Shown here: positions 14,256-56,888 of the stretch, piece after piece
How the letters are laid out: the number at the start of each line of letters is the position of its first letter
Position numbering within the stretch: position 1 is the stretch's first letter
Source: Psammoneis japonica
Taxonomy: Eukaryota
Assembly: GCA_008632985.1 (NCBI GenBank)
Contig: QPGO01000064.1
Location: forward strand, 1 to 64,000
Direction of reading: 5' to 3'
Length of the DNA stretch: 64,000 bases
Notes under the pieces: generated by a model
Told to the model about the DNA's origin: nothing
The model's input: only the letters and a program-made list of their open reading frames with translations
Databases searched by the model: none
Position numbers and translations under genes: made by a program

Positions 14256-14550
14256 CTGCTGGCGATAGCGTAGACAATAAGTCATCGTACAGTAACAAAA
14301 TGTTTAACGAAAATGACTTATTGTATCTTTTGTTACATAAATCAAAACAATTTGTTGGACATCTGCTATTTAACATATTGGATCCCGAGACAAAAAGAAA
14401 TCAGGAAAGAATGAATCCACCGATGCATCACAAATCACACAACGTACTGTAACATCACACAAGCATTCTACTCGCAATCTTAACACTCTAACTCAACACC
14501 AACATTCGACGTGATTCATCGTTCTCGCGCCTTCGGTCCTCTTTGCTTCG

Positions 14551-24488: not shown

Positions 24489-24879
24489 CTTGGTTCATTC
24501 AACAATGGGATTCATGACGGACATCTGTAAAACGAATGGGTGTCCAGAAGAAAGTATCGTATTAGACTGTCGCCCCCACTTGCCAGCTGATGCAACAGCA
24601 GACAGAGCGTAGTGACACACTGTACTTTCCTGTCGGATTGAACGAGACCAACGAGCTACCGCATGGGTTTTAATGTGATTTATCATGCAGTACGCGTTGC
24701 CGATCTCGAGAGTGAAGGCCAAGAAAAAAATGAAAGAGTCAATTAGAACTAGCAACTAGAACTTGTTGAATTGTCCAATGCCCCTCGAGAAGTGAAACTG
24801 TGGTTTTACATCTTTGTCCGTGACATTTCTAGGTGAGCTGTTGAGACAATAAGGAGCTGTCTTGGTCCCGCTTCGCTTG

Positions 24880-26150
24880 GCCATTTTGACATGCTCCAGA
24901 CTGTTTGTCAGAAACCACAAAACAAAGTTCTCATCGCTGCGTGGACCTGTCAAGACTGCAGGTGCATGATTGTGGCAATGCAGCAAGTGTCCTCCTGCAT
25001 CATTCATTTGGATGAAGCAATCCATTTCATCTTGCATCACTTTGTCACACAGTCACAAGAGATGCGGTTGTCCCACAGCCCCAGCAAGGATTTGGCCAGG
25101 GGGGTTGTCATCATCCACTGTTGTTGTTTTTCCTTGGAAATGGATTTGAGAGCAAGATGACTCACTAAAAAACAGCAAGCTTGTTGGTGAAAAAACAGCT
25201 GATGATTTCAGATGCCACCCAGGGGGCTGCACAGCTCTCTGTGTCCATGAAGCAAGTGCTGTGCACCACATTTCTTCTGTCATGTGTCTTTGTTGAAAGC
25301 AGCAGGCATTCCCATGTGAGTGCAAGCTTGCCAACACTGATGGTAAAAAAGCCAGGGTCTCATTGCATGGTCCAAGCCAAGCTGGGCAGACCAGCTCATG
25401 ATGGGCCATCGTCTTTTTGTGCACACAACTTGCTTCAAGTTCTCTAACTTTTCAACCTTGCTGCTTGCTTCTAGCAAGCTCTCCCTCCAGTGGTGTGCAG
25501 CTTTCAATGTGCCTGCAATGAGTGCTGGTGCGGCATTGTTGCTGATGTGCTCCATGTGCTGCAGTGTGTTTCTGCGCCACAATTTTTCTCACCAAGTGTG
25601 CCAAAGGCACAAAAAAGCCATGCACACATGTTTTTCTGAAATGTTTTGGCAGCAGTCATCATCTTCAGCACAGCAGCTGAGCAACAAAACAGCAGCCATC
25701 ATGTGCCATTGTTGGTGTCTGCTGCTCCTGTCAGCAGCACACACAGCCCTTGGGGACAAGGTTGGCTTTGTGGCCACCAAGGGCTTTGAAGGGCACAACA
25801 TGTGTGTGTGGTTGACAAACCAGGTGCTGCAAAGGATTTGAAAAAAACCTCCCCACCTGTGTGAGACTTTGTTGTGGCATGCTGTGCCTTGGAGTGGCTG
25901 CCCACAAACTTCTTCTCAGTGCTGGCTGCCCATCATGAGGCAGCTCATGATGGGAGAAACAGCAGAGCTCTGCCACATGGTGGCCAGCATCAACCCACCA
26001 CTCGAGCAGGCTGTGCCTGGTGTACAGGAAGCTGTTGGTCCCAACAAGTGGCACCTGGCTTGTTCATTTGACAACGCAATTTGTTTTGCACTTTTTCTCA
26101 TGTCATGCGGTCAGCATGTCGGCATTTGCGAAAGCACGAACGCTTTTCTT
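24880..26150. other. TpA/CpG-depleted island, decayed minus-strand coding relic of unknown origin
   Basis: About 5 TpA seen in 1.2 kb. The minus-strand ORF 24756-25040 grades from Tyr-free (HLLHCHNH) to Tyr-containing at the island edge. Confidence 0.6.
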
Positions 26151-28929: not shown

Positions 28930-30600
28930 AACTCTAGAGACATGGCAAAATGGCAGACACAATGGCTCTCCACCAGCAAAAAATCAAGATGTGTCATTGC
29001 CCATTTTTCAACAATTTGCCATTGAAGTTTGACCTTGTTGTGCCCGCAGCTTGTTCTCCAGCTCCAGGTGTTTAAAAAGGGGCGCGATTCATCACTCGCC
29101 CATTTTTGCATTTGGCACAATGAACTCTTTCAGTTTCAATTTTTTTTTACAATGGAAGGGTGAGTGTTCATGAACATTTTATTTTTTTCAAAATGATCAA
29201 AATTGAAAAGGAGAGTGCCGTGTGCAAGGTTTGATGATGCAGCAACAGCATGTGGATGAAAGCTGATGCTGCTGAGCACACAAAAGTGGGTCCATTGCTG
29301 TGGTGCACCTGTGTCGCAAGCGTGGGGCCAAGTTTGTGGAGCAATGACAGCAACGTGTTCAAGCCGCACACGAGCCAAAACATGCACAAAAACACAACAT
29401 TCGCACAATTTTTGTGCGGTCTCTCACTTGCAAATGAGCTTTTGCCACCAAAAGCGCAGATTCATGCAAACACAAATGTTTTGCAACATTGACAAGACTT
29501 GTGTCAGCGCTGCAATGTCATTGATTTTTTGTGCAGTTGATGTTTTTCATTGCGACAAACGAGTTGCAACAGCCACAGCGGATGATCGTTTCCAAAATTT
29601 TTGAAGATTCATGTGCTGTTGCTGTTTGAAAACTAACATGAAATGTTTGTGCATGCATTTTGTAGCATCAATCTGCTTGCACAAAAGTTTCTGCATTTCA
29701 AGCACTGGTGCACAGTCTGCATTTTTTCTGCACAAAAATTTTGTCTCACATGTGTGTCTCATGTGAAGACTTGAGCACCAACAAAACATTCATTTAAATG
29801 TGCACACTCTAACAAGTGCAAAAGCCAGAGTGCACAAGCATTTTAATGAGCAGCCTCAATGCACGAAGCTTGTGCAAAGTGTGTGCAAAACGGATTGTCG
29901 TTTTGTGCATCACCTGGTGCTGAAACATGCCCAGCTGCAAACCTCCCATCTCTGTGCAGCTTGTGCTCTCTTTCTTGCTGGTTGCCCATGCAAGGGTCCC
30001 TCGTTTTGCTTGGCTTGCAAGAGCATAAAAACAATGGACCAACACAGCAGCAAGCTTTGCAAACCATTTGAGTGCTCTTTTGTGTCTCTGCTGCCGCCAA
30101 ATTGGCTGATTTGGTGCTTTTCAATCTTTGATTTTTTAGCTGATTTGTCCTGAGAAAGATGAATGTTTTGGAAAGGAATTAAAGTCTGCTCTCCAGCTGT
30201 CATTGGCAACACACACAGGCACTTTCACAGAGTGTCTGTTGCCGCAAAGCTGCTCTCATGGTGTTGGCACGCGGGCAGAGCCGCCAGCTCATGGGGGGGA
30301 CTCATCCGTCACACCAAACAAGTGGTCAACATGGTTCTTGGGCGATGTGCATGTGCAGCAAAGGTGGTCATCCTGTAAATCACAAAGATGCAGGCAACTC
30401 TGCTCAAAGCTCTGTGACGACAGAGCCGCGCCGGCGGTGCTGTGGGCAGCCAAGCCTTGTTGCCCCCAAAGAAAGTTTTTTGAAGGTGTTTTGTGGTGGG
30501 GGCAGGAGCACAGCAGCAAGTTGTGTCAGATCTCAGGGTGATTTTCTGTCCTCCAACACTGAGAAACAAAGAAATCATCAAAAAAGCCTCTGTCAACTTC
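28930..30600. mobile_element. TpA/CpG-depleted repeat relic, family uncertain
   Basis: Extreme TG/CA enrichment. Residual TpA is mostly TAA/TAG. Only Cys/His-rich spurious ORFs. Confidence 0.55.
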
Positions 30601-30988
30601 TCGGAACACCAACTCATTCCCTTCTTCTCTCGTGACTTGGTTGACGCCCGTGATGCGATGGCCTGACTCCACTGTCGGTCTCCACGACGCGCCGGTACGT
30701 GTTTCGTCGGTGCACGTCATTGCACGAAATGCTGGCCACTGATTGGTGGAACATCGCTCTTTTTTCTCTGACGATGAGAACCCCAAAATGCTTGGCTTTT
30801 TGGCTGAACATGTGACGTCACGCAGCCAGCACAACACGCGAATTGGCTGATGGAATTTTTCTCACAACACACCTTGAACCTGATTCTACACAGACACGGC
30901 ATTAGAGTTGTCATTCTTTGTGTCTCCAGCGAGTGGCTGGGACTCGTTCCCATTCTTTCGTCGTTCATTTGCGTTTGCAAGATCAATC

Positions 30989-32264
30989 ATGAAGGCTGCT
31001 TTGTTGATATTCGTCGGGGTTACGGCCGTGGAAGGCTTTGTTGCTCCCAACATGCCGTTTGTTCCGGTAAGAATCTTCCCAGCAGAATTGAGAGTTTCTG
31101 TTTGCAGTTGGTCGCAGACAGACACGAGAGAAAACCCTCAACACGATTTTTTGACGTTGTTCTCACGATTCCTCACGATTAGATGAACAACGTGTTGGGA
31201 AGCAGAATCCATAAGCCTATTTACATGGCAGACTCGACCATGTTCGTAGATTCGTCGGAAGGAATGGGACCAGGAGGTGGTAACAATCCCGCGGAGGAGT
31301 CGTTGGGATCATCGATGCCCTTGCAGGCTGAATCAGCAGAAACACCCCAGCCAGTCGTTGCCGAAGTTGAAACTCTCGAGGAGATGAAAGTGAAGGATCC
31401 GATTGGAGTACTCTTGAATGAAGTTCGTGCTCTGGATATGAATACCGTAATCAACACGGCTGTATTGGTTTGCGTTGTTCTTGCAGTGCTTACCAAGCTC
31501 TCCACAGTAGATTCGGGATTGACCAGAGGATGGTCGGTTGAAGAAATTGCGCTTCGAATTCCTCTCGACACTTGGCAGTCGTATTCTGCCGTTTTGGAGG
31601 AAGCGCCCATCTCCACAAAGGCAGTCACGAGTGCCACGGTGTACACGATTGGAGACGTCATTTCACAGACGACCGAGGGAAGAGAGATTGGAGAATTGGA
31701 CCGTCCTCGTGTTCTCCGTAGTTTGTTGGCGGGCCTTATTGGTCACGGACCACTTTCGCACCTGTGGTACAATTTCAGTGAAGGAATATTCAACGATTTC
31801 TTGCACTGGACGGCTTGGTGGTCCTTTTTTCCAAAGGTTGTTCTTGATCAAACCACGTGGGGGCCAATCTGGAACAACAGTAAGTCAATTCCTTATTGAA
31901 GTATCGTTGGTTGTGAGTTGAGGTTCGAGACACAATTCTTACATTCCTCTCAATGTTGGTTATGGTTTTTACAGCCTACATTTTGCTCCTTGGTCTCATG
32001 AAGTTGGACAAGCCCGAGACGATTTTTAGTGAAATGAAACGCACGACCATTCCCTTAATTGTCTCTGGTCTCAAGCTATGGCCTTTGGCGCACTGCGTCA
32101 CATACGGTCTGATTCCGGTCGAGAATCGACTCTTGTGGGTCGATTTGGTGGAGATTATCTGGGTCACCATTCTCTCCACCGCTGCATCCGGTGCAGCTGA
32201 GGAGGTCATGTTGGAAGAAGAAATTGCAGAAGAGGAAGTAGCAGCATCCGCCGCCACAACATGA
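30989..32264 (+). CDS. Mpv17/PMP22-family membrane protein, plastid-targeted, 3 exons
   Basis: MKAALL...VEG|FVAP, PISTKAVTSATVYTIGD, GPLSHLWY, KVVLDQTTWGPIWN, LKLWPLAHCVTYGLIPVENRLLWV. Introns ~31067-31182 and ~31880-31974. Confidence 0.9.
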
Positions 32265-32812
32265 CACGCCGCAACAGAATACTGCTTCTTCCCAATGTTT
32301 TCGACTCGCTGCCACACTGGTGTCGAGACATTATTATTACACATTATGCATCCGCATGCCACACGCACACACCACAATTTTCTGCGTTACAAGACAAAGC
32401 ACACCACACAAGTAACCCATATAGTCATTTGCACACACATTGCTTACATATTGAATTTAGAGTATTTTAATTGCTCCGAGGGTAGATTCGCATCTTTCAA
32501 GTAGCTGCAGCATCCATTGGTTCGTTCTCAGTTCCCGGAACACGGTTGTGGTACTTTGTCCGTCATTGTCTGAAACAATTCCTATCCGTGACGCTGCAGT
32601 CGTTGGCTTGAAGGGAGAAAGAATCTGGAAGTAGAAAGTATTGGGCAAGGGACTCCGAGACCGCGGTTATGAGGAAACGTGAGAAGAACGATCTTAGTCT
32701 CCAAAAAAGTAGAGTTTTACTTTTAAATATATGAAAACATTAAAATCAGTTACGCAAAAAGAAACGTCCCATCTGATGGATCAATCTTCAACTACGCGAG
32801 CATGCTGCCGGA

Positions 32813-33484
32813 TTAGAAAGGATTACCATTATGATCACACGGACAGGGTTCAATGTTGCTGAAAAAATCGTGTAGCTGTGAGGCCGGACATCGCTTTGCC
32901 AGAGCACCTTGCCATCACCGTAAAGGGTGAGCCTGTTCTCGGTAGGATGTTGGTCATATGCAGCACAAAGATAACAGTCTTTGAGCCTAGTATTCCTCGC
33001 ATTGGACTCCCACTTGATTTCCCAATGCCGGCCAAGTCTTTTCCTTCGAAAAGGAGCAACTTGCAATCCCTCTGCAAGTACATGGTGAGGTTGGAGCCAC
33101 CGGAAAACTTGTTATCGGACGGGCTGTACAAGTTTCCTCTCTTGAGGGAATTGTAATAGGGCTTCTCATTCTGCGAAAGGGAGAAGCAGTCCAAGCTATT
33201 CCAAACTCCGAACCTCTTCTTGATATATACATAGAACAAGTGTCTCCTTGGAGGTAGAGTTTGTAGAAAGCTCTTCCGAGGTTCGTGCCAGTGGCATAGA
33301 CGATCTCATTGTCCCCCCCTCCCGGATGTCGGTAGACGATCAAGTTCCCATCCGAATGCATTGCCACGAAAACCTCTCCCCTCTGCTTGGGTTTCCTGTA
33401 TGCCAAGGAGTCTTGAATTGGCCGTTAATCTTCCGCTCCACCATCAGATTACCACAGTTCCTTAGACGCAGCCGGCAGTTGCCG
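32813..33484 (-). pseudogene. 5'-truncated, frameshifted bulb-type (B) lectin-like duplicate
   Basis: Aligns to 39274-39955. MHSDGNLIVY and LQRDC motifs. Frameshifts near 33235 and 32860. No signal exon. Confidence 0.8.
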
Positions 33485-33598: not shown

Positions 33599-36500
33599 CT
33601 ATTCCTCCTGCGCAGTCGCAGGCTCCTCGATGATGGCTTCGCAGAACTGATCATGGGAAGTCGGATCCTTTTGGCATTCCCGTTCCTCTACGGTTGGGCC
33701 ATCTTGGCATTTCCTTTCGGTTGTGGTGGAATCCTCTTGGTGTTTTTGTTTTGTCATAATTTGGACCTTTTGTTCTTCCTTGTCTGTCGTAACTCGATCC
33801 TCTGGGTCTTCTCCTTCTGTTGTAGATAGAACTGGGTCTTTCGCTTCTGTTTCATCATTGGATCCGCCAACAACACTTACGTTAGAGTTGTAGGATGCAC
33901 GCGAAGAAAATCCACTGCTGCTAGTGGGTCCATCATCTGTGGTCTTTGGGACCACTGTCGTAGAATTCTGATTCTTCAACGAACTTTCAAACGCCATACT
34001 CGACGAACGTTGTACGTGTAAGGGAGCCGAAGATGTACCAGGGTCTTCGAAGCCTGAGATATGCACGCGACCGCGACTGTGTTCACTGACGGCGGTGGTG
34101 AAGTGATCACTACCACCATCAAGAATGTACTGATGTACGTTCTGAATGATGGGCACAAAAATCAAGCCAAGCATACTACCACAGACAGCAAATATTAGTG
34201 CTATCTGTAGAACATACTTGATAAGAGTGTCATCGTCATCGATTAAGAAGATAACAGGGAGGCCAACCATAAGGAGCTGTAACCAGCATAACACAGCGAT
34301 ACCGACGTATTTGCTCTCGCTTAGCTCGCTGGGGAGATTCCGGGCCTTAAAGGCCTGCCAGACCGCCAATAGCAAGGTGGCGAGGTTAACGGAAATGGTG
34401 AGTCCCAAGAACACATCCCCAGCTACACCTTCGCTCTTGCATGATCCATATGTATTCCACTCTTCCCCATTAACAGGCAGACGTTGCCATGTGAGTGGAT
34501 CGATGATCGTCCATAGCACTAGAACAACAACGTTTAAAGAAAGCATGACAGACCCCCAAAGTAGGACATCCTTGGCGGTAATTTTTCTCCTCACAAAGCT
34601 CCCCGCATTCAGCAGCTTGTTGACTCGCAACAGCTTCGAAAAGAGAGCTGCGCAGGACAGCGAAAAACCGATTGACAACAGCCAGGGCGTTGCCTGACAA
34701 GAAAAGTCGCACACGTTGTCCGGCGCAATTTGATCGTCAATTCCCAGCATAATCATGGCGCAGCCAATGATACCAACTCCAGTTAAAAGGATATAGAGAA
34801 AGGAGGGCTGCATTTTCGTCAGGGTAGGAATGAATGAATTCCGTACGACCCATATTGCCAGCCCGACAGCAGACAAAACGACAATGGCAGCCAACGTAAA
34901 GCCAAGGTAACGAACGTTTCCAATGTAGTTCATTTCGGGTGTCGGATCGACGCGCATAATCACATCAAAGGTAGCATCTAGCCCTTCGCAGCCCACATGC
35001 AGTCCTCCGTCGAGAATACGAAAGGCGACTTGCCCGTGCGCACTGCCAGGTTCGAGGTTTCTCGCAGAAACCTGATAGTCAATGGAGAGTCTTGACCCTG
35101 CGTTGAGCAAAAAGGGAGCATCCTTGACAAAGATGTTACCAAGTTCCTCATCCTCATTCAACTTGGCTTCGGTAATCTCGAGCCATGATGGCAGACTCTT
35201 GGGTCCAACGTTGACGGGAAATACGGCACCATTCACCAAAGACGCTGTACTTGTCACATTCTTGGTGGACCCCGTTTCACCGTGAAATTCAAAGTTGGAT
35301 CCTACCCACACTATGTTATTCGTCTTGGGACAGGGCAGACAACTTTGCAGAGCTGCATTGTACGTAGTTGACACGGTGCAATTCTCTGGCATCTGCACAA
35401 GATTCATTACATCCGTGGAGGAAGTATCATTAATGAGACGGCCTTGGAGTGTGGTATTGTAGGGCTGGTCCTCCTTGGCATGAAACGTATTCATATACGC
35501 AATGGTAGCACTGAGGGCCGACTCGCTGCCAATGACTCCTGGGACTTCTCCTTCAATCACCAAGTCCGAAACGGTCAGTGCCGGAAATTTACCATGTGAT
35601 CCACACTCATAACTGTTGGTGACAAAGCTGTACATGGTCAATCGTTGGACTGGTTCATAGGCCTGTGTTGTTTCATTCCAAACATCCAAGGCCAACAAAC
35701 GGGAACTGTCTTGGGGAATATTGGCATTATAGGTCAGGCGCATGCCAGAGACCTGGAGTAGCTTGGACCATCGACCGCCAAAAAACTTGCTGACCCGTGT
35801 AGAATATTCTGCCAATTCAAAGAGGGAAATGCCGCTCATGACGCCCTGACACAGTGTCACAGGAAATGGAAAGGTGGACCACAAGCTTAATGCATCAATG
35901 GGACCAGCCTCCCAACCCACTCCACGCATGGGTCCAGCGGAAAGAAACGCAACTTGCGCACCAGCATTCCACCGGTAGGCATCTGCCAAGAGATTGCCAA
36001 TGGCGCATTCCCCATGGCGACAGGTTACCCCAATGGGCGGCATGGTTGTAGTGTACCCCGCAATGGGATTGTGACGAAAGGCCTCTTGCGTCAAAGCGGC
36101 CACGGCGGCGACATTCTTACGATACGTGCCGTCAACGGCCTGTTCCGGGAGTTTAGGATAGGGCCGCTGGAGTACTGTTACGTTGGCCAAGCGCGTGGGA
36201 TCATTATTATCGGTGCTGATGCTACTGCGCGTCAACTGAAATTGGAGGTATTGACCGGCTTCACGACTAGCCGAAACAATCCAGGGTGCCCATGTTGAAT
36301 CATTACCATAGCGAATTGGCTTGTGGTCGGCCTCGGGCATATTAGCCACAAGATTGACAATGAGAGCTGGCGGTGGCGAATCGATTGTGGCATTTGTTGT
36401 GACTTGTTGTAGATATCGTTCGAAGAATCCAGGGTTCCATCCAGGTGATTTAAGAAATAGAACTGGAGTCCAGCAGCCAGGGGGGTTGCCGGGCTTGCTG

Positions 36501-37216
36501 TTATTGTTGTTGTGGGCGAGTTGACTGTTGTTTTGAAAGCAGCCATTCTCCCGATTGACTCTGGCAACATAGCGCGTAAGGGCTATGGAAGCATCTGCCC
36601 GAGGGATACCGATCACGGCAGGATTGGAGCGAGCATCAAAGTACATAATAGCCAAGAGCGTGTCATGGTCAAAGTATATGTTGCGATGGTACGGCCAAAA
36701 AGAATTCATGGGCGTCAAGCTCACGTCGGACAAGAGAGAAGGAAAGGCCAGATCTTGTAAAGCCGTGATATTTCTCTGCCGCGACCTATCATAATCATCC
36801 GTCGAAGGGTTGATGCCTAGATTTGACGGGTTCGTCATGTAGAATTTCCATCCCAACAAGTCTTTGAGAACAGTAGCATGGACGCCCCACTGGTCGGGAT
36901 GTAGATTTGTGATATAATCCAAATAATTCAATTCTGGCACCACAACGTACGGCAGTGCAGCAGTCGTTGCAGTGGTCGTGGAGTTGTTGTTGTTGTTGTT
37001 GTTGTTACCCTCTTCTTCTGGTGCTAGTGATTGACTGTAATAGCGCACGAGGGCATCGGCCACCACCGGACCGGCGTAACATGCTTCTTCCTCTCCCACA
37101 ACGGGGCCCTCACGACAGGATGAGAGGTTTTTGCCGCTTGCGAAATTCACGAGGCCTGGCAAGGCCATCAAGACAGTATTGCGACTGTCACTGCCGTCGT
37201 CGTTGTTGCTGCTCAT
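33599..37216 (-). CDS. Class C (GABA-B-like) 7TM receptor with extracellular 5'-nucleotidase-like domain
   Basis: 1205-aa intronless ORF. CRHGECAIGNLLADA..AFLSAG..FPF..LQVSGMRLTY (5'-nucleotidase C-terminal domain), then MQPSFL, PWLLSIGFSL, LFSKLLRV, DPLTW, SESKYV (7tm_3). Confidence 0.88.
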   Translation of the reverse strand: MSSNNDDGSDSRNTVLMALPGLVNFASGKNLSSCREGPVVGEEEACYAGPVVADALVRYYSQSLAPEEEGNNNNNNNNSTTTATTAALPYVVVPELNYLDYITNLHPDQWGVHATVLKDLLGWKFYMTNPSNLGINPSTDDYDRSRQRNITALQDLAFPSLLSDVSLTPMNSFWPYHRNIYFDHDTLLAIMYFDARSNPAVIGIPRADASIALTRYVARVNRENGCFQNNSQLAHNNNNSKPGNPPGCWTPVLFLKSPGWNPGFFERYLQQVTTNATIDSPPPALIVNLVANMPEADHKPIRYGNDSTWAPWIVSASREAGQYLQFQLTRSSISTDNNDPTRLANVTVLQRPYPKLPEQAVDGTYRKNVAAVAALTQEAFRHNPIAGYTTTMPPIGVTCRHGECAIGNLLADAYRWNAGAQVAFLSAGPMRGVGWEAGPIDALSLWSTFPFPVTLCQGVMSGISLFELAEYSTRVSKFFGGRWSKLLQVSGMRLTYNANIPQDSSRLLALDVWNETTQAYEPVQRLTMYSFVTNSYECGSHGKFPALTVSDLVIEGEVPGVIGSESALSATIAYMNTFHAKEDQPYNTTLQGRLINDTSSTDVMNLVQMPENCTVSTTYNAALQSCLPCPKTNNIVWVGSNFEFHGETGSTKNVTSTASLVNGAVFPVNVGPKSLPSWLEITEAKLNEDEELGNIFVKDAPFLLNAGSRLSIDYQVSARNLEPGSAHGQVAFRILDGGLHVGCEGLDATFDVIMRVDPTPEMNYIGNVRYLGFTLAAIVVLSAVGLAIWVVRNSFIPTLTKMQPSFLYILLTGVGIIGCAMIMLGIDDQIAPDNVCDFSCQATPWLLSIGFSLSCAALFSKLLRVNKLLNAGSFVRRKITAKDVLLWGSVMLSLNVVVLVLWTIIDPLTWQRLPVNGEEWNTYGSCKSEGVAGDVFLGLTISVNLATLLLAVWQAFKARNLPSELSESKYVGIAVLCWLQLLMVGLPVIFLIDDDDTLIKYVLQIALIFAVCGSMLGLIFVPIIQNVHQYILDGGSDHFTTAVSEHSRGRVHISGFEDPGTSSAPLHVQRSSSMAFESSLKNQNSTTVVPKTTDDGPTSSSGFSSRASYNSNVSVVGGSNDETEAKDPVLSTTEGEDPEDRVTTDKEEQKVQIMTKQKHQEDSTTTERKCQDGPTVEERECQKDPTSHDQFCEAIIEEPATAQEE

Positions 37217-37439
37217 GATTGACGTCTCTCAGCTCCCTCTCTCATCTTTTTGGGAATAGCGGTCGGAAGTTGAAGGTCGCGATCTCTCTTCTGTGTCTTA
37301 TTGTTTGTGTTGTTCACCCGTGCACCGTGCGTGCGGCATGTTTACGGTACTGCGTTCAGCGTATCATACAGGACATACCGGTACAGCCGTGGCGTGCTGT
37401 ACCTGGTACGGCCTCTCGGTCCTTCAGCGGTGCGACGCA

Positions 37440-38490
37440 TGTGTGACAGACGGTAAAACCCAGGGTTTTTGAGTGTTGAGTGAGCCAGTTGAGATTGGAG
37501 CTTGGATGAGTGTCTTGCAAGCTGGTCAGCCATGGATTCAGTGACCAAAACACTGAGGCTCTGAAGGTCCCATTGGGAGGGTGTGTGGTGGGTGTGTGGT
37601 GGGTGCAACTGTGAGAGACGAGAGCTGGCTGAGACACAAATGCTTTTCACAGCAGCAGGCTCCAGCAGGCAGAGCTGTTGCTGCAGGGGAAAGATGCTGG
37701 TGCCACAGGAGGAAGGGAGCTGGGCAAAAGAAAATGAATCATGGGCATGAGGAAGTTAAAAAGAAGCAGCTGTTGTCCAAGGCAGAGCAGAGCTGGAGTG
37801 GGGGGCACCTTGGTCAGGAGGCCATCAAAGAGGCTGGTGTGGGCAAAGTGGTTGGGTGCGCCGAGATGGCCAACACAAGTGGGGCAAGACAAGGATGTTG
37901 GTGCTGGGAGGTGGCCCATGAATGAGGAGAGAGCTTTTGGGTTGCCAGTCTTGGTTGCAAAACTGTGGGTGGCACATGTCGGAAAAGATTGGGTGCCAGC
38001 CGAGTGACAAAAAGTGGGGGCAGAGCCGGCTGAGATGGTGGAGTGACACCCGGGCTCCATTGGGCTGATGCAGGCACACTTGTGGGAGAGAAAGAGTGCA
38101 TGGGGGGGGCAGTGTCAGATCTCAGATCTGTTGCAGCAGCACCCATTTGGACCCTTTCTTCTTGGACCCCCTCCGTTGAAAGTGCTCGCCCTGCGGCAGA
38201 TGCCCCAGTTTGCCGTGGTTGTGACACATTTCTTGGTTCCTTGTCAGCAGGGACAAGTTGGCAGCTGGCATGTGGTCACTTTTGTTTCATGATTTGCCAC
38301 CAATGTTGGGGGCATTTTTGCTCATGTGATGGCTGCTCATCATGTGGGTGGCTGGTGGCAAAAAGTGCGATGTCATGAGTGGCGATGCTGCTGGCTGATG
38401 AAGTCTCTCTGGGCAGAGAGAGAGAGAGACACACACATGAGGTGCAGTGGGCAAGACATGAAAAACAGCAGCTTGTGATGACTTGTGCAC
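37440..38490. mobile_element. TpA/CpG-depleted repeat relic
   Basis: Only about 2 TpA seen in ~1 kb; TG/CA-rich. Confidence 0.55.
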
Positions 38491-38720
38491 TCAGAAGGAA
38501 ACAAAATGTGCAGCTGTTCCCTTGATCATCTCTGGTTTCAAGTTGCGGCCTTTGGTGTGCAGCATCACACATGGGTTGATTTCGGATGAGAAACCACCAA
38601 AACACTCTTGCATGTGGGTTGATTTGGTGGAGATTGTCTGGGTCACCATTCTCACCACCACTGCACCACCACAACAACATGACATGCACCACAAGAAAAT
38701 GCTGCTCCTTTCCAAAATGA
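38490..38720 (+). pseudogene. Hypermutated duplicate of the Mpv17 last exon
   Basis: VPLIISGFKLRPLVCSITHGLIS...WVDLVEIVWVTIL versus IPLIVSGLKLWPLAHCVTYGLIP...WVDLVEIIWVTIL. The homologous block continues to ~39955. Confidence 0.9.
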
Positions 38721-39273
38721 TTTAGACTCACTGCCACGCTGCTGTCCAGACATCATTGTCACAAAAATTGTGCATCCTTGTGCCACACACCCACACACCA
38801 CAGTTTTCTGCTCTTCAAGATGGAGCACACTGCACACCCCACAAGTGTCTCATGCAGTCATTTGCACACCCATGCTTTCATGTTAAGTCTGGAGAGCATT
38901 TTAATGGCTCCAAGGGTAGATTCTGTTCTTTCAAGCAGCTGCAGCATCCCTTGCTGGGTTCATAACCGGAAAACCGTCATCGCACTTTGTCCGTCAGTGG
39001 CTGAAACAATTCCTAACCATGACACTGCAGTAATTGGCTTGAAGGGACAAAGAATCTTCAAGTAGATAGTGTCGGGCAAGGGACTCCGAGACCGCGGTTA
39101 TGAAGAAAAGTGGAAAGAACGATCTTACTGTTGTCCAAAAGTGGAGCTACTCTAACATATGAAAACATTTCAGAATCAGTTATAAAGAAGAAACGTCCCA
39201 TCTGATGCTTTTTTCTTTGTACGACTGCTAACTTCTCAGGATCAATATTCAACTACGCTAGCATGCTGCCAGA

Positions 39274-40291
39274 TTAGGAAGGGTTTCCGTTATGGTCACA
39301 CGGATAGGGCCCATTGTCGCTCAAACAAATCGTGTAGCTGTGAGGCCAGACATCGCTGTGCCAGAGCACCTGGCCATCACCGTAAAGGGTGAGCCTGTTC
39401 TCAGTAGGATGCTGGTTATATGCAGCAGAAAGATAGCAATCCTTGAGCCTAGTATTCCTCGTATTGGATGCCCACTTGATTTCTCCCATGTCAGCCAAGT
39501 CATTTCCTTTGAAAATGATCAAGTTGCAATCCCGCTGCAAGTACATGGTGAGGTTGTCACCGCCGGAAAACTTGTTGTCGGACGGGCTGTACAAGTTTCC
39601 TCTCTTGAGGGAATTGTAATAGGGATTCGCGTTCTGAGAAAGCGAGAAGTAGTCCAAGCTATTCCAAACTCCGGAACCTCTTCGTGACAGATAAAGAGAG
39701 CAGGTGTCTACTTGGAGGTAGAGTTTGTAGGAAGCGCTGCCGAGGTTCGTGCCAGTGGCATAAACGACCTCGTTGTCATTTCCTCCCGGACCATTCTCTC
39801 GGTAGACGACCAAGTTCCCGTCGGTCTGCAATGCCGCGAAAAACTCTCCACCTCTGCTTGGGTTTCCTGTCTGCCAAGAAGTCTTGAATTGGCCGTTAAT
39901 CTTCCGCTCCACCATAAGATTACCACGGTTGTTTAGACGCAGCCGGCATTTGCCGCCAGGGTTAACCTTTGCGTTAGACACCCCGGGGTACAAGCGTTCT
40001 GCGGGTGGCGAGCCCATTATCTGTTCAATAACACCAAGTTTCCTCTACAAACCAGAAAAACGCAAAACAGTATGATCAGCAAGAGTTCGCCTCGTCACAA
40101 CCCTTCACTTTACCTGAACTTACATCGTCTTCTTCTCCAAGTCGCCTCTGGACCAACAAGATTGGAAAAACAGATAAACAACATCAGAAACTCTAACTAT
40201 ATGGCTGTTCGAGATTCATACTTCCGATACGTACACTTTCTCCCTGTCCAACGAGAAGCAGCGCTAGGATTGCGATTGAAGGGATCTTCAT
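39274..40291 (-). CDS. Secreted bulb-type (B) lectin-like protein, 3 exons
   Basis: MKIPSIAILALLLVGQGES signal exon, 24-nt microexon RRLGEEDD, LQTDGNLVVY, YATGT, LQRDCNLIIF, WASNT. Confidence 0.8.
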
Positions 40292-41372: not shown

Positions 41373-43136
41373 CTAGGGTAGCGGGGTAAGCTCGATGTAT
41401 CTGAATGTAGCCTCCTCGAGCTCGTCTTTAGCAGGATCCTCGCCCGGTTCTGTGTCGTCTTCAAAGGACGTAACTGCCAATCCGACGAAAACCTCTTCAG
41501 GCATCTCGATCGTTTCCGTCACATTCCACCAACGATAAAAACTGTCCTCCGGGGGAGGGACCGGGGGAGGAACACAAACATTATCTTCCTCCGGGAAGGA
41601 GCCAGATTCCGTGAATTTCGCCGTGATTACGTTACCGATGCGTTCCATTTTCATCCACCAGCAGTAAACATCTGCAACAGCAAAGTTAGAGACAACTACA
41701 GTTCCATCGAATTCCGTTCGAGTTGACGGGTTGAAATACACAGAATTCGGCGTATACCCATTGAACACGTGTTTTGCCACAGGGTCAAGACTGCCCCGTA
41801 TCATGAGCCCCGTCCTTCCTACGAGGCTTTCCGATTGTTCTTCTTCGATCGAAGTTACGTCACACACTAGAGCGTGCATCCTGAAATTGCCAGAAACTCT
41901 CTTGTATGCAAAGTGAAGAGCATCTGGACACGGACCATCTGTACCGGCGTCACACCCAACACGGCCACTTCCACGCACTGTGTATGACCAATCATCGAAT
42001 TGATTGTAGCTACCTGCTTTTGGAACAGTTCCTATATCCACGCTGTCTTCGATGTCAAATGAAGGAACTGGTGATAGATCGCAAACGGGATAGCCACGGC
42101 GATCACACGGAAAAGGTCCGTCTTCACTTAAACAGACAACATAATTGTCAGGCCAACCGGCGGCACCATGCCAGAGCACCTCATCATCACCATCGTAGAG
42201 GGTTAGTCTGTCTTCAGCGGACAGATAGCATTTGCCGAGGCTACTGTCCCTCGTGTTGGAAGCCCACTTCACTTCTCCCATGTCAGCCAAGTCCGTTCCT
42301 TGCGAAATGAGCAAATTGCAATCATTTTGCACGTACATAAACAGGTCACCCGAGTTGGTGTAGTACCCAATAGGGCTGTACAGGTTTCCTCTTTTCAAAA
42401 TGTTGCGAGGAGGATCGGCATTATTGACCAAGACACGATCATTCACGCTTTGCCACACAATCTTCTCCGGGGGACCAGAAGTCAACGAAAGGCCACACGT
42501 TTCTTCGTCGAGATAAAGCCTGTATTCGGGGCCTATGCCATGATTCGTCCCCGTAGCAAACACGGATGTACTACCTTGACTGTCTTCGCGATAAACAACA
42601 ATGTTCCCATCCACCTGCAACGCCATAAAGAAACTATCACCTCCTCCAGGCGGGTTCCCTGTTTGCCAGGCAGTCCTGAAACCACTTCCACCAACCTCCT
42701 TCTCAACATAAAGATTACCTCCGGTATTAAGACGGAGACGGCACTTTGTACCACGGCCGTTATCAGTAACTATAGCGTTGGCCACTCGGGGGTACAAACG
42801 CTGAGCCGGTGGCGTGAACGGGGATCCCGAGCGCATTATCTCTTGCAAATCGCCAAGTTTCCTCTAAACCAACCACCCGGAAGAGTTCAATAAAAGCAGA
42901 GATAAGTATCTCAAAGCTTCTTTAGCAATGGACGTTGAAATCACAGTAGAGAAACTTACTCTTTCTTGTTCTCCAAGGCGCCGCTAGACCAAAGCGACCA
43001 GAGAAGACCACAGAAAAAGACGTCATGAGCAGTCCCGTCAAAACCAATCATTCGCTTTACCATACAATGGCCGACGTACACTCTCTCCCTTTCCAAGGAG
43101 TATCAGCGCTAATATAGCACTTGAAGCAATCTTCAT
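41373..43136 (-). CDS. Secreted bulb-type lectin plus C-terminal ConA-like (DUF1349-like) beta-sandwich, 3 exons
   Basis: Signal exon MKIASSAILAL, LQVDGNIVVY, VQNDCNLLI, then DIG..AGS..TVRGSG, DALHFAYKRVSGNF, TGLMIRGSL, KMERIGN, VFVGLAVTS. Confidence 0.8.
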
Positions 43137-48779: not shown

Positions 48780-49530
48780 ACTTCGGTGTCTGTCAGTCTT
48801 GGGCTTCGTGCTCGCGATGTGTTCTCTGATTCTCTGGCCTGGCTGTGCTACACACACTCATTTTGTTTTTGCGGTAGCGTTGGTGCCTCAAACCACGGTT
48901 CTTGGGAAATGGGTCCACACACAGAGGGGCAACAAGGACACCATGCCAGCAGAACGACGTCAAAAGCTAGACGACATTGGGTTTGTTTGGGACGCTTTTG
49001 AATGTGCTTGGAATGAAAAATGCCAACAGTTGTGTGAATGCCGCGAGACTCATGGAAACAGCAAGCACTGCCATTTGTGATGCTTCAACTCATTTCTGTC
49101 TCATCATGATCTAAGATTGTGCTCTGTTCATTTTGTGTTTGCGGCAGCGTTGGTGCCCAAAACCTTGGTTCTTGGGAAATGGGTCTCAAAGCAGAGGGGC
49201 AACAAGGATGCGATGACAGCTGAACGACGTCAAAAGCTAGACGACATTGGGTTTTCTTGGACGGGCAAGAAACTCAGTGAATGGGAAGTGCACATGGCCA
49301 TGATGCAGGCAACTGGGAAAGCTGACTGTGCTTCTCCTGCTCCTGCTCCGGCAGCTGCTGCGCACGCCGCTGCTCCACCGCCGGTGCTCTCATTGCGCCT
49401 GCCATTGCGCCTGCTTTCGGTTCACTCGCACGGCGGAGCTAGAACAGAATCGAGAGCTGTTCGATGCCGAGGCGCACCTGGAGCAGCGCTGTTTTGGAAG
49501 GCCATCTCTAGAGAATTGACAGCATACACT
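48780..49530 (+). pseudogene. Helicase-associated (HA) repeat gene relic, TpA-depleted
   Basis: Two LGKWVxxQR...ERRQKLDDIGFxW repeats. WNEKCQQLCECRETHG has Cys at positions that are normally aromatic. Intron-like spacers. Confidence 0.7.
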
Positions 49531-49803: not shown

Positions 49804-52800
49804 ATGCCTGCTGCATCAAATACCACCGACAGCCCTAGCAACCGCAATCATATAACTAAAATGATTGAAACCATTCATCACGCTCCTGTGATGACGGAAG
49901 TGAGCCGTGACGAAAAGGAGAATGCAACAGACGGCTCTCTCCATAGCAACAACAACAGCCCCAGAAATGACTCCAAAACCGCTTCTTCTTCTACAAGCAA
50001 ATTGCAGTGGTTCTTCTTTGATCTTCCCCTTGCGACGGTCTTTTTCGTATGTCTCTCCTTTCTCCTCACACAGCATGTATACCACACGCTCGTTCTTCCT
50101 ATTGTCGATTCCTACCGCCGCGGAGACATGGATGATTTTTACCCGGAATTGGAAAACGACTTTACCTATTACAACCGTCTCTGTGACGCATCCGACATTA
50201 CCACGACGGACTCGAGTGATTTGATTGTTCACAATGGCAAACAAGCCGCCGATACCATGCTGAAACACGGATCAATTTTATTCAAAAATGTAGTCAACAA
50301 CGAAACCACCACGGCACTTCGGGCTTATCTCGATTTCGTCAATCATAAGTTGGAACGAAATGCCTTGGGATTTAACGAGAATTTCTTTGACGAAGAAGAC
50401 CGTTTGGCTCTGGGATTGGGCATTCATGATCACCCCGCTATTGCACAAGCGCTTCAGCAAATTGGAACCCATCCCGTTGTCAAGGAATCGCTCGAAGCCA
50501 TTTTAGGTCCCGATCCGGCCGTGTTGGAGATTTCAACCATGACATCCATGCACGGTGCCCCAGATCAAGGTATTCATTCCGATAGTGATTGGTTTGGATC
50601 GTCACTCTTGTATGGAAGAAACTTTTTGCATTCCTACAGCATGTTTGTGGCACTCCAAGATACTACTTCCCAAATGGGTGCCACTACGGTCTGCCCTGGT
50701 AGCCATCATTGTGCCAATCAAGATTTAGAAGATGTTTGTCTAGACAATGGTGCTTTTGAAGTTTCTTCGAATGGACACACGGGTGAGAACGGTGCTTTGC
50801 TTACGGGTGATGCGGTAAGTTCTTTTATTGTTTCTTCAGAAATTTTGTTCGTCATCATTTTCCTGGTGTTACGATCCTCTTACGATTTTTCGCTGTATTG
50901 TGTTTTTGAAACAGATGCTCTTTGCACAAGACGGTTGGCACAGAGGAGCAGCCAATCAAGACCCCAACACGGATCGCATCATGTTTATCGTTACCTACGC
51001 ATCCCGAACCAAACAAACGCCGAGTGATTATCGTCAACAAGCACTCGGAACGTATTATTATCAACGATGGAACATGTGGGGACACACCTACCAAGATCTC
51101 AAGACGGCAGCCACAACCATGGCACTACCCTTTGGTGCGTTGCGCGGATTGGGTTTGTGGAAATGGCCCAATGCCAATTGGGGTATTACGTGGATTGAAC
51201 AATTTAGTCGGCAAATGGCCAACAAGGAAGATTTTTATGATTATGATTGCTTGTTGGATTTTGTCAATGTCCTCCGCAAATGGTCGGTTCCGGAATTCTT
51301 GCTAGCCAATTTGACGGGAAACGAGGAAGAAGATACGTGGGATCGGTTTCTAGAAGAAAGCATGAACAATGTGGCTACCTTTTTGTGTCTAGTGTATGCT
51401 GCTGTGCTGGGTGGTTACGTCTTGATGCGGTTGCTCATGACGGTCATTTCTAGAAACAAGAACCGTCCCTTTGCTTGGTTCAAGCGTCTTGTACTGACGC
51501 ACACTGCCGTTTTGCTTCTCGTGGGATTATTGTACAAGTGGATTCAATCGTCTCACTTGGCAAAGAGCGTCACGTCGGGACACGTGTTTGACAAGCCCTA
51601 TGATTATGATCGTATCGACTCGGAGCACGGTGCCTCCTTGGGACCCACCACGCTTCCCACACGCAACGATGTCTTGATTGGTTCCAGATTTGATTCCGAC
51701 TTTTTGGGACTTGCCAATCGCTTTCTGGAAGTGCATCCCGGCAATGAGCGTTTCAACGATTTGATTCAAGGCGTTGCAGACATGCCAAGCAATGTACAAG
51801 ACGAGGCTGTGAAACACATTGTCCAGACTATTGAAGCCCGTGACGAATCGACGGGTTTGATTGGACGCTTTCTTCTTCAAGACTACACCAATGGGCATTG
51901 GACCACAACGACCCATGAGGATGCGATCGAGTACACCAAGAAGCAAATCAAAATGCTGTCTAGCCGACTCCACAAGGGACTTGGCAAGCATTTGGCCTCA
52001 GTCTTGGCCGAGAGCCGGTTTGGTGCCAACCGTGCCACGGCCATGTCGCGCAAGTTTGCTCCAAAGTTTGTCAACCAGTGGGAATCCATTGTCTTTGCTA
52101 AGAAAGAAAAAGAGTTGGGATCCAAGTATTGTCGCGTCCCTGTAGACGAGCCGTACAATGTCTTCTTTGATTATTTTCAGATTGTTCCGACTGTCACGAC
52201 TCCATCATCCTTGCTTGCGGCTCTACCTATGCGTGCCGCAACGTATTCGGGTCTACCCATTCCGGAAGAGCATGACTTTGACGTGGGCCATTTCGTCTTG
52301 GCCAATTACGGAAACTTTGGACGATGGATGCCTGCAAAGATTGAAGGCTTTACAGAAGATGGTGATTACCTTTTGCAATACGAATCTGGAACCGGAGCCG
52401 TAGAGGGGACCGAGGACCAATTGAGAGTGTTTGACTCGTTCGTCGCGGGCGACGAAGTGAACGTGGAGGTGGGAGGACTAACAGATCGGTGGTTGGCAGC
52501 CGTGGTTACCGATTGTCATCCCGATGGTACCTTTTCAGTAGAGTATGAAGATGGTGTCGTTGCGACTGGAATCAAGAATATTCACATTCGATTTGCCGGC
52601 TTGCCCGGTCCCGCCGCCGAGCGCATTCAAGCGGACTTCTACACTTTGAACGAACAAGTCGAGGGCAACTATCTTAATGAGGGCGAATGGTTTTTAGGCA
52701 CAATTACAGCGGTTAACTACTTCGATGGCGCGTACCAGTACGACGTCCTTTACGATGACGGAGATGAGGAGACCGATGTGGACCCCGAGTTTCTTCGCAA

Positions 52801-52813
52801 AGTGCGGAGTTAG
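49804..52813 (+). CDS. Membrane protein with PhyH-like 2OG-Fe(II) dioxygenase, DUF6824-like domain and three Tudor/Agenet-like repeats (copy 1; intron ~50815-50930)
   Basis: QGIHSD, FVALQD...GATTVCPGSH, WHRG.AN...R, NDVLIG..HPGNERF..GRFL..GHW, W.PAKI...Y.LQY, YDVLYDDGDEETDV. Confidence 0.8.
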
Positions 52814-52918
52814 CCAGCGGGTTGCAAAGTAGAAGAATGTGTGTACCTTTTATCAAATAATTTTACATGTAACAGAATAACAAAATAGGCGTGGCTTATT
52901 GCTACAAAGCGAAAAACT

Positions 52919-53220
52919 TCATGAGGACTCGTCCTTTGCCATTATTGGCTTGACATGCGAGTCACATGCCGCATGTTCAAGTTGCACCTGTACCAAACAA
53001 TGCTTTCCCGGAATCATGGCTTGACTCAGCTCTTTTGTGACCGTGACGCTGTTTTCTCCCAAGGTTCCTCCAGAGCAAACATCTGGATCTGTTTGTAGTT
53101 CTTCCACAGCCTTGGCCAAGATTGCATTTTTCCTGTCTGTTGAGGGAAGAAAGATTTTTAAGCATTGACCACAGACTGCAATTCTGGGAACATGTTCCAA
53201 AGAAAAAGAGACATCACAGT
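52919..53220 (-). pseudogene. Mutated duplicate of LSM gene exon 2, followed by TpA-poor sequence to ~53460
   Basis: Aligns to 56889-57160 with repeated TA to CA/TG changes. Exon 1 is absent. Confidence 0.85.
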
Positions 53221-53787
53221 CAAATGAAAAGAGTTTTTGCTGACTTTGTGCTGCAGTCACAGCCAAAGTCACTTCATCAAGAGCCCCGATGAACAGTCAA
53301 AGTCAAAGTCAGGCAGTCAGCTGAAAGGACGACCACAAGTCAATTAACAGTCATGGTCAGTCATGTCTCATGGTGTTCAGTGAGCAAACTGACTAACATG
53401 CATCACTTGTTGAGGCCATCTGCAACTTGTTTCTGCTCAGCGCGCGTGCCTTTATTTGATCGAAAAGGTTTCCTTCAAGTTGGAGGGAGGAGTGAGTCGA
53501 AGTGGTACTGTACGTACCGGTACGTACCTGGTAGTACCGGTACATAATGATGTACCGTACAATAAGTCTGTTAGGGCAACTTAAAAGTCATACCGGTAGT
53601 CATAGTCATTTCAAAGAAACAAGCAGTGACTTGCTATACTATTGTACTACGCTACTGAATTTTGTATTTACTGGAGTGTCTGTCCGCTGACATTCTTGAA
53701 AAAGACTCGAAAATTCCAAAAAACACGACTTCGCGTTTGCAACACGGGTCTCACTATTTTGCGATTTCATGATCTGTAGTTGACACA

Positions 53788-56778: not shown

Positions 56779-56888
56779 CCAACGGGTTGCAAAGTAGAAG
56801 AACATGCATACGGTACCTGGTATCACATAGTTTTACATGTAACAGAATAGCAAAATAGAAGTGGCTTGTTGCTACAACTCGAAACTCT

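Follow-up and report, generated by a model that had tools for sequence, protein, structure and literature searches.

A segmental duplicate in the diatom Psammoneis japonica probably records regional hypermutation of TpA together with slower CpG decay

The two copies of a 1.45-kb segmental duplicate in the diatom Psammoneis japonica probably record a DNA-level hypermutation that acted in place, was limited to a bounded domain of the nuclear genome, and was accompanied by a slower decay of CpG. In the affected part of one copy every aligned TpA of the other has gone, most of them to TpG or CpA. The change runs in that direction, is restricted to islands, and is independent of the general divergence of the copies. 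The pair lies in a stretch of 64,000 nucleotides (the window), in which there are about eight sharply bounded islands of 0.2–2.4 kb, and the left half of the derived copy is in one of them. The components of the pair are as follows.

32046 to 33484: block A, partner of block B in the 1.45-kb duplicate
38507 to 39955: block B, partner of block A
31974 to 32264, plus strand: the parent, an intact last exon of an Mpv17/PMP22 gene, in block A (Pfam PF04117, E=6.6e-16)
32046 to 32463, plus strand: "before" part of A, the exon end and proximal 3′ flank, which pairs with the fully TA-erased part of B
38507 to 38897, plus strand: "after" part of B, a degenerate Mpv17 exon fragment and flank
38898 to 39273, plus strand: edge zone of the island in B, also the 3′ flank of lectin B; the TpA excess is partial here
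32788 to 33484, minus strand: lectin A, a frameshifted pseudogene (three ORF pieces; 1-nt alignment gaps)
39274 to 40020, minus strand: lectin B, an intact B-lectin-like ORF (Pfam B_lectin, E=5e-6, below the curated cut-off)

Global alignment of the blocks gives 1170 identical bases in 1365 aligned (85.7%), with 110 transitions and 85 transversions. The initial annotation had proposed aligning the copies and tabulating their substitutions by dinucleotide, and we did so for dinucleotides with a single difference, using a two-sided binomial test. On the Mpv17 side (A 32046–32790), TA in A faces TG or CA in B at 19 sites and the reverse holds at 2 (p=2.2e-4); CG in A faces TG or CA at 14 sites, against 3 in reverse (p=0.013). 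The asymmetry is absent from the lectin body, 32791–33484, where the same tally gives 2 vs 4 for TA and 5 vs 8 for CG. All nine of the TA>TG/CA string pairs that the annotation had listed, and all three of its CpG losses, are seen in the global alignment; its statement that both strands are hit also holds, since the 19 TA-derived products comprise 11 TG and 8 CA. The duplication itself stands as annotated, but its start does not: homology begins near 38507 rather than at 38490.

Within A 32046–32463 there are 17 TpA, none of which is kept in B: one falls in a deletion, two are TT, and 14 are TG (nine) or CA (five) in 38507–38897. The 18 CpG of the same segment fare similarly, with one deleted, 11 now TG or CA, five otherwise changed and one kept, so that the survivors number 0 of 16 aligned TpA and 1 of 17 aligned CpG. 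Transitions affect 14 of the 33 TA bases and 12 of the 153 other A/T bases (Fisher p=5e-6); for CG bases and other G/C bases the figures are 11 of 36 and 12 of 134 (p=0.002). The remaining bases of the erased part differ at 39 of 287 positions (13.6%), and those of the lectin body at 66 of 576 (11.5%). The loss of TpA and CpG is thus independent of general divergence, the other bases having diverged to a degree similar to that seen elsewhere. We rejected GC-biased gene conversion, as the GC contents of the two aligned pieces are nearly equal (0.478 vs 0.483) and only TA and CG show the excess. A reader might suspect ordinary neutral divergence, with examples chosen by eye, given that transitions over the whole block are near balance (60 AT>GC vs 50 GC>AT). 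This has practically no probability in view of the left-half tallies, the Fisher value for TA bases, and the long TA-free runs of the window (991, 970 and 966 bp, at a mean TpA spacing of 28.7 bp), which have a chance probability of about 1e-15.

Full erasure stops near 38897, and a weaker excess continues to about 39160. In the edge zone, transitions are found at 5 of 31 TA bases and 6 of 150 other A/T bases, with TpA retained at 38902, 38917, 39014, 39063 and other positions. Beyond it, lectin B has normal TpA (28 and 19 per 500 bp) and normal CpG. The lectin A pseudogene, which lies outside any island, is a control for ordinary decay: when its 31 lineage changes are polarised by paralogue C, two are TA and two are CG transitions, and the signature is absent.

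The direction of change is set by the exon. The Mpv17 exon of A has 62–79% identity to 20 diatom homologues and carries the residues common to them (W36, A39, Y44, P48, V49 and others). B differs at conserved residues and has indels; therefore B is the derived copy within the exon, and the initial annotation was right to read TpA to TpG/CpA, together with CpG loss, in this direction. At Tyr44, for example, the codon is TAC in A and CAT in B. For the non-coding part of the pair the same direction is supported by the exon, by the island context, and by two transposon ORFs elsewhere in the window that can be polarised with outgroups and agree with a change from TA to TG/CA. In the reverse transcriptase ORF at 3–794, six of eight conserved Tyr are lost (four to Cys, one to His, one to Phe; the replacement codons are TGY for Cys and CAC for His), against changes in 5 of 113 other conserved columns (Fisher p=3e-6). 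In the DUF7869 ORF at 2137–2727, all six conserved Tyr are lost (three to Cys, three to His), against 11 of 71 other conserved columns (p=5e-5), and R>H (CAT) and T>M (ATG) changes are present as well. Pooled, Tyr has given way to Cys or His at 11 of 14 conserved positions.

Conversely, A might have gained TpA by a RIP-like C>T change at CpA/TpG, leaving B nearer to the ancestor, and it is true that raw pairwise differences alone give no direction in the non-coding part. The chance of this is slight indeed, however, because A encodes the conserved residues, Tyr44 included, and is of ordinary composition (rho TA 0.59–0.67), B sits in a zone of rho TA 0–0.15, 14 CpG gains in A would also be needed, and the outgroups of the transposon ORFs give TA>TG/CA.

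The islands and related elements of the window, for which no strand is assigned except where given, are these.

1 to 1800, plus strand: Copia-type retrotransposon remnant (RVT_2, E=2e-15, in the ORF at 3–794)
1829 to 4183: island with the DUF7869 ORF (E=4e-15); 5 TpA in 2355 bp
7221 to 8653: island; 1 TpA and 19 CpG in 1433 bp
24851 to 26023: island; 4 TpA and 9 CpG in 1173 bp
29181 to 30887: island upstream of Mpv17; 10 TpA in 1707 bp
37455 to 38506: island core, contiguous with the mutated copy, with a sharp left boundary at 37455
48969 to 49440: small island with an HA-domain ORF (49081–49440)
53076 to 53345: small island whose left edge forms a second before/after pair with 57027–57160
63492 to 64000: island cut off by the end of the window; 1 TpA in 509 bp

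In the 9265 bases of the islands there are 25 TpA in all, a density of 7% of that outside; CpG is at 38% of the outside density and CA/TG at 1.48 times, with TG and CA roughly balanced. In 1-kb island windows, the CpG observed/expected ratio is 0.07–0.65. The second pair repeats the first on a small scale: six of the seven TpA in 57027–57160 are TG or CA in 53060–53200, and the one that is kept is in TTAA. At 7221–7240, TATA is replaced by TGCA; the island here begins where the alignment of sulfatase copies 1 and 2 ends. The Copia remnant has rho TA of 0.08–0.33 and rho CG of 0.62–0.89, and within 1–1500 TpA is lost while rho CG stays at 0.79–0.89. It follows from this stretch, TpA-depleted with near-normal CpG, that the losses of TpA and of CpG are two separable processes.

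The TpA that survive in the islands are not a random sample: 20 of 25 are YTAR, where 17% would be expected (p=1.5e-11), which fits a substrate preference better than blanket selection. A stricter rule, that TAY is the substrate and TAR is spared, gave the right product strand at only 6 of 10 informative sites, and is not claimed.

The island that holds copy B has a single TpA, at 37757, in its core (37455–38506), and TA-free runs of 303 and 966 bp span 37455–38723. The duplicate is affected in its left part alone because the rest of it lies outside the TA-free, CpG-poor island, 37455–38897. We asked whether such runs could be an artefact of assembly or base calling, in which modified bases (5mC at CpG, A or T at TpA) were misread as TG/CA. 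Some long-read platforms make systematic miscalls at methylated motifs, and exactly two dinucleotides, both palindromic, are affected here. Three public runs of one sample, which may be the source, bear on the matter. A contig of 6194 nt built from the reads of a run that may itself be the source sample and whose library type is not on record (word depth about 60) shows no substitutions and one 1-nt insertion against 36800–39607. X1 and X2 show no variants in the island, X2 having no cover at 37370–38509; the differences at 39358–39916 come from contigs of paralogous copies that aligned on block B. Moreover, a two-strand miscall would be expected to show up as a consensus that is mixed or ambiguous, not as clean TA-free runs of 1 kb, and the reverse transcriptase zone is TA-depleted with its CpG retained. 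We therefore regard an artefact as very improbable.

Among 50 island ORFs of at least 90 aa, three have Pfam matches (RVT_2, DUF7869 and HA-domain), so a mobile or foreign origin is evident only for island 1, which has the RVT_2 and DUF7869 ORFs, in addition to the HA-domain ORF at 49081–49440. The six ORFs of at least 90 aa in the core 37455–38506 gave no Pfam match, and the repeats sought in this core were not found; the 289-aa ORF at 7223–8089 had no match among 1.84 billion representatives. Terminal inverted or long direct repeats were absent from the four islands checked. For eight islands, parents were sought elsewhere in the window by RY-coded 28-mers and transition-tolerant local alignment; one was detected for 53160–53345 (score 52, median 30), and none for the others within the window. 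GTAC-rich clusters lie beside two islands and not the others, and were dropped as a boundary signal. Copy B itself is host DNA, and its island has no Pfam match. Since the affected Mpv17 fragment is host DNA, either spreading or a different targeting rule is needed. In 40 other diatom-like contigs (366 kb) such an island is found in only one, where it contains a MULE transposase; the process must then be lineage-restricted or rare near this gene.

It could be supposed that nothing was mutated in place, and that the islands, being foreign or expressed sequences, avoid UpA and CpG. Joint suppression of CpG and UpA with an excess of TG/CA is a known compositional pattern (PMC3829696), and for most islands no parent can be identified in the window. 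The before/after pairs nevertheless largely refute this explanation, to which we give a low probability: copy B is a dead gene fragment descended from a sequence that contained TA and CG, the destruction of conserved catalytic-domain Tyr in two transposon ORFs is the opposite of purifying selection, and neither the edge gradient nor the YTAR-biased survivors would be expected.

The extent of the affected zone also bears on whether an ADAR-like, A-to-I edited transcript was copied into DNA by reverse transcription. ADAR characteristically prefers U on the 5′ side, according to a recent preprint (10.64898/2026.01.13.699255), and one island does contain a retrotransposon. Against this, B is part of a genomic block with a convergent gene, of which only the left 400 bp is affected; the zone runs on leftward into unrelated island DNA and fades at its right edge; and non-retro elements, namely the DUF7869 ORF and the MULE element of the other contig, are affected too. 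Such a route is highly improbable.

We favor, instead, hypermutation of chromosomal DNA. Inside the islands, TpA on either strand would be converted to TpG or CpA (A:T to G:C) at a rate far above background until nearly none remains, while CpG would pass to TpG/CpA more slowly and apparently independently, the simplest cause being cytosine methylation and deamination. Since some islands have transposon-type coding remnants, mobile or foreign DNA that has been silenced is most likely what the process marks, and it may extend a few hundred bases into adjoining DNA, which here would be the redundant Mpv17 fragment of the duplicate. An enzyme may drive it by deaminating adenine at 5′-TA-3′ in DNA, as proposed for Bigelowiella natans, and chromatin or small RNA may guide it.

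Because TA>CA and TA>TG are strand mirrors, the sequence cannot tell which base of the pair was attacked. The 11 TG and 8 CA products would equally follow if an enzyme of TET/JBP type, with the same regional targeting, oxidised T at TpA to 5-hydroxymethyl- or 5-formyl-uracil, as the products of thymine oxidation mispair with G and yield T>C. A single class of 5-methylpyrimidine enzyme could then touch both T at TpA and 5mC at CpG. We consider thymine modification unlikely, if worth keeping in mind; the stretch 1–1500, where TpA is lost and CpG is near normal, argues against one enzyme for both.

The closest known system is found in the chlorarachniophyte B. natans, where regional hypermutation confined to TpA affects integrated viral DNA (Mettrop et al., bioRxiv 10.64898/2026.01.13.699255). 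Of 231 mutations in two hypermutable regions of its mutation-accumulation lines, 230 were A>G or T>C; according to the authors, the GC-biased mutations there are all on TpA. The same feature is present in our pair, with 14 of 16 aligned TpA turned to TG/CA. In both organisms the A:T>G:C transitions are confined to TpA, giving TpG or CpA by strand; they are sharply regional, leaving DNA depleted in TpA and enriched in CpA+TpG; and they are opposed to the usual GC>AT bias. In B. natans they are tied to viral or transposon-type sequences, which some of the diatom islands contain as well. The differences are several. The host is a diatom (a stramenopile) rather than a rhizarian. The islands are 0.2–2.4 kb, as against regions of 25–186 kb or clusters of at least three 1-kb windows; 8 of our 64 1-kb windows pass both cut-offs of the B. 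natans type, at most two being consecutive on a fixed grid. Erasure is essentially complete here, whereas the NCLDV region of B. natans still has a TpA content of 3.3%. CpG is co-depleted in most of the diatom islands, while the accessible text of the preprint makes no mention of CpG. A host-derived duplicate is affected in the diatom, and surviving TpA are YTAR-biased. Finally, the B. natans mutations arose de novo in mutation-accumulation lines, and the diatom process is known here from its footprint alone.

Fungal RIP, too, ruins duplicated or mobile DNA by hypermutation, through transitions at a specific dinucleotide, and leaves a before/after record in duplicates. RIP, however, changes C to T at CpA and creates TpA, whereas the diatom islands lose it (rho TA 0–0.15), as the outgroups confirm. 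It also hits both copies along their duplicated length; in the diatom one copy is changed, over about 400–650 bp of 1.45 kb, and the mutated zone continues into non-duplicated DNA. Copy A is of normal composition, and the lectin part of neither copy is enriched. The decay of 5mC by deamination in methylated transposons shares the change of CG to TG/CA (11 of 17 aligned CpG) and the low CpG observed/expected ratio, and would account only for the CpG half of the signature; the CpG loss may reflect methylation. Methylation of transposons is known in diatoms, as reported in PMC9998398. The hyper-editing of viruses and retroelements by ADAR and APOBEC is similar in being of deaminase type, context-dependent, and directed against invading nucleic acids. 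Those enzymes act on RNA or single-stranded cDNA, unlike the diatom process, whose changes are fixed in chromosomal DNA. The segment is not a retrocopy: the affected zone consists of unrelated island DNA and part of a genomic duplicate that includes a convergent gene, and it fades at the edge.

TpA-only hypermutation of chromosomal DNA has one prior report, the 2026 preprint on a chlorarachniophyte; for diatoms, neither TpA-depleted islands nor TpA hypermutation turned up in a literature collection that covers few subscription journals. A saturated footprint in a diatom extends TpA hypermutation to a major group of phytoplankton, and this case comes with an adjacent parent, with transposon ORFs in which Tyr>Cys/His changes are polarised by outgroups, and with a pseudogene that lacks the signature and serves as control. 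It indicates that the process can spill onto host DNA and is separable from CpG decay, and the suggested preference for flanking bases, with YTAR spared, constrains any candidate enzyme. There is a practical side as well. Spurious ORFs of great length arise in every one of the six frames of TA-free islands, for example those of 150–300 aa at 37342–38752 and 7166–8435; they mislead gene finders, and the islands mislead composition-based detection of foreign DNA.

It is tempting to propose, though we do so tentatively and with some doubt, that diatoms possess a guided DNA-editing genome defence that erases TpA over silenced transposon domains and their surroundings, alongside CpG methylation, and that it is homologous to the Bigelowiella process. 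Such a defence, if it exists, would be an ancient equivalent of fungal RIP, shared across SAR and opposite to it in chemistry, and could disable adjacent host duplicates and reshape intergenic composition.

Within the window, TpA has been converted to TpG or CpA in a dinucleotide-specific, strand-symmetric and regionally bounded manner, with derived polarity, and there is CpG decay in addition. A neighbouring pseudogene has undergone neither the TpA conversion nor the CpG decay. The window is nuclear DNA of a diatom; the best protein matches of its Mpv17 exon are from Thalassiosira, Chaetoceros, Cyclotella, Pseudo-nitzschia and unnamed marine sequences, and its transposon ORFs match entries from Cylindrotheca and Cyclotella. 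The change can be followed in a segmental duplicate, block A (32046-33484) and block B (38507-39955), which are 85.7% identical over 1365 aligned bases in a global alignment; a repeat finder gives the same pairing, in pieces. The blocks retain complementary genes, the Mpv17 exon in A and the lectin in B:

Block A: last exon of Mpv17/PMP22 (Pfam PF04117), intact
Block A, 32788-33484, minus strand: B-lectin-like gene, split by 1-nt gaps in the alignment into three reading-frame pieces
Block B: degenerate Mpv17 exon fragment; in the global alignment 61 nt are deleted and insertions of 8 nt and 4 nt are present
Block B, 39274-40020, minus strand: intact lectin ORF
33599-37228, minus strand, between the blocks: 1209-aa ORF with a 5'-nucleotidase C-terminal domain and a family-3 GPCR seven-transmembrane domain

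The gaps in the block A lectin lie near 33022, 33209 and 33378, and its 5' end is missing. The DNA between the blocks comprises the 1209-aa gene and about 1 kb of unassigned sequence, and the arrangement of a block, 5 kb with another gene and a second block resembles a duplication on either side of an insertion.

The initial annotation had read the Mpv17 duplicate as having lost TpA to TpG or CpA, and CpG as well, from parent A to copy B. Every pair of strings that it quoted is present in the A/B alignment, and the dinucleotide tally bears out the loss of TA and CG toward B in 32046-32790. There, 19 TA in A are TG/CA in B, against 2 in the reverse direction (binomial p = 2.2e-4), and 14 CG in A are TG/CA in B, against 3 (p = 0.013). 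The corresponding counts for the lectin body, 32791-33484, are 2 against 4 for TA and 5 against 8 for CG. The effect saturates within B 38507-38897, where the 17 parental TpA became TG (9), CA (5) or TT (2) or were deleted (1), with none surviving; of the 18 parental CpG, 11 became TG/CA, 5 were changed otherwise, 1 was deleted and 1 survives. Transitions in this stretch affect 14/33 TA bases vs 12/153 other A/T bases (Fisher p = 5e-6), and 11/36 CG bases vs 12/134 other G/C bases (p = 0.002). Since differences outside TA and CG (39/287, 13.6%) are close in frequency to those in the lectin body (66/576, 11.5%), the stretch is not generally hypermutable. To the right of 38897, TpA is partly retained, with a residual excess of 5/31 vs 6/150.

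The direction of change, which the annotation took from the functional exon, agrees with 20 diatom Mpv17 homologues, and together with the tallies this supports its interpretation. The homologues share W36, A39, Y44, P48, V49 and other residues with A; B departs from them (the Tyr44 codon went from TAC to CAT), so in the exon B is the copy that changed. Polarity elsewhere was examined in two transposon ORFs, compared with protein homologues, and in the lectin pseudogene, compared with a third paralogue:

3-794: Copia-type reverse transcriptase ORF (RVT_2, E=2e-15)
2137-2727: DUF7869 ORF (E=4e-15)

Against 35 homologues, the first departs at 11 of 121 strongly conserved columns, and 6 of these 11 are Tyr, replaced by Cys (TGY) four times, His (CAC) once and Phe once; conserved Tyr is thus retained at 2/8 columns vs 108/113 for the others (Fisher p = 3e-6). 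Compared with 31 homologues, the DUF7869 ORF has Cys or His at 6/6 conserved Tyr (Fisher p = 5e-5 for Tyr loss), and it also carries R>H (CAT) and T>M (ATG), the changes expected from CpG decay. As a control, the block A lectin pseudogene, which lies outside any island, was polarised by the paralogue at 41373-42863; among the 31 changes in its lineage are only 2 TA and 2 CG transitions.

Copy B's affected half forms the right-hand portion of a discrete island (37455-38897), one of about eight TpA- and CpG-poor, TG/CA-rich stretches in the 64 kb:

1829-4183: island
7221-8653: island
24851-26023: island
29181-30887: island
37455-38884: island holding the left half of copy B
48969-49440: island
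53160-53345: island
63492-64000: island

Together they hold 25 TpA in 9265 bases, 7% of the outside density; their CpG density is 38% of that outside, CA/TG and GC stand at 1.48x and 1.36x, and TG and CA are in balance. The longest TA-free runs are 991, 970 and 966 bp, vs an average distance of 28.7 bp between TpA (chance probability of one such run ~1e-15), and 20/25 surviving TpA stand in the context YTAR, vs 17% outside islands (p = 1.5e-11). The host genes (three sulfatases, gamma-glutamyltranspeptidase, pseudouridine synthase, Mpv17, lectins and a SAC3/GANP protein) have ordinary composition. Two further before/after pairs lie at island edges: six of the seven TpA of 57027-57160 are TG/CA in 53060-53200, the one kept being TTAA, and TGTATATAAA at about 13505 corresponds to TGTGCA-AAA at 7221-7240. 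That modified bases produced the island signature as an artefact is unlikely, as a contig built directly from the reads of a public run, which may be the source sample and whose library type is not on record, matches 36800-39607 with no substitutions.

Since a TA-free sequence can contain neither TAA nor TAG, the islands show long open frames of up to 308 aa, in several frames of either strand, at 37342-38752 and 7166-8435. They are almost certainly not genes; a search with the 289-aa frame (7223-8089) matched none of 1.84 billion representatives.

Other features of the window include three tandem sulfatase paralogues:

4793-7155: sulfatase (Pfam Sulfatase + SGSH_C), copy 1
11091-13432: sulfatase (same domains), copy 2
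14612-16715: sulfatase (same domains), copy 3

An island directly follows copy 1, and a TA-rich patch (13501-14500, between copies 2 and 3) follows copy 2. The composition of this patch is opposite to that of the islands, with 41 and 58 TpA per 500 bp (rho, the dinucleotide ratio, 1.1-1.3), low CpG (rho 0.43-0.45) and low TG/CA (rho 0.77-0.92). An inverted RY-coded match joins 14384-14415 and 22383-22414. Two tandem copies of a block that codes for PhyH-like and Agenet/DUF6824 proteins lie at 49810-53140 and 53794-57107, with small islands upstream of each copy's position. At 37347-37409 (4 GTAC) and 53505-53560 (9 GTAC), directly beyond the edges of two islands, GTAC/CGGTAC motifs form dense clusters, among them a (GTACGTACCG)n array; none is seen at the remaining islands of the window. 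At 60334-60516 there is a tandem repeat (99-nt unit, 1.8 copies, 89% match).

The two losses are separable, since the reverse-transcriptase zone 1-1500 is depleted in TpA (rho 0.08-0.33) yet keeps its CpG (rho 0.79-0.89). The Copia-type remnant as a whole (1-1800) has lost most TpA with CpG near normal, which suggests that the erasure of TpA either outpaces CpG decay or proceeds independently of it.

The island criteria, under which 33/255 windows of the 64 kb itself qualify, were also applied to forty metagenomic contigs that encode Mpv17 relatives (each at least 3 kb, 366 kb in total). Three island windows were found, all at 1500-4000 of one environmental diatom-like contig, L035; this stretch, a weaker island that is depleted in TpA and CpG and enriched in TG/CA, codes for a MULE transposase and a SWIM finger. 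Such islands are therefore not universal near the Mpv17 gene, yet they recur with a transposon. No report of such islands or hypermutation in diatoms was found in the literature searched, whose coverage is incomplete.

We propose an enzyme-driven process that would be guided to silenced mobile DNA and would spread a few hundred bases beyond it. Adenine deamination would be the leading chemistry, with thymine oxidation as the alternative, and the CpG loss may most simply be methylation-dependent. RIP is ruled out, since TpA is lost here instead of being created, a single copy is altered and the duplicated length is affected only in part. The one close precedent in the literature searched is a 2026 preprint on Bigelowiella natans (10.64898/2026.01.13.699255). 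In its mutation-accumulation lines, A>G or T>C made up 230/231 mutations in two integrated viral regions, at rates ~1000-fold above background; by the authors' account these GC-biased mutations were all on TpA, and they suggest that an ADAT2-like enzyme deaminates adenine in DNA as a defence (10.64898/2026.01.13.699255). The diatom window shares the signature with that case and probably also the regional restriction and the link to transposons; its lineage, the size of its islands, how complete the erasure is, CpG co-depletion, YTAR-biased survivors and the host-derived segment caught in an island set it apart. The finding is best filed with a kind described only very recently, to which it adds real value.
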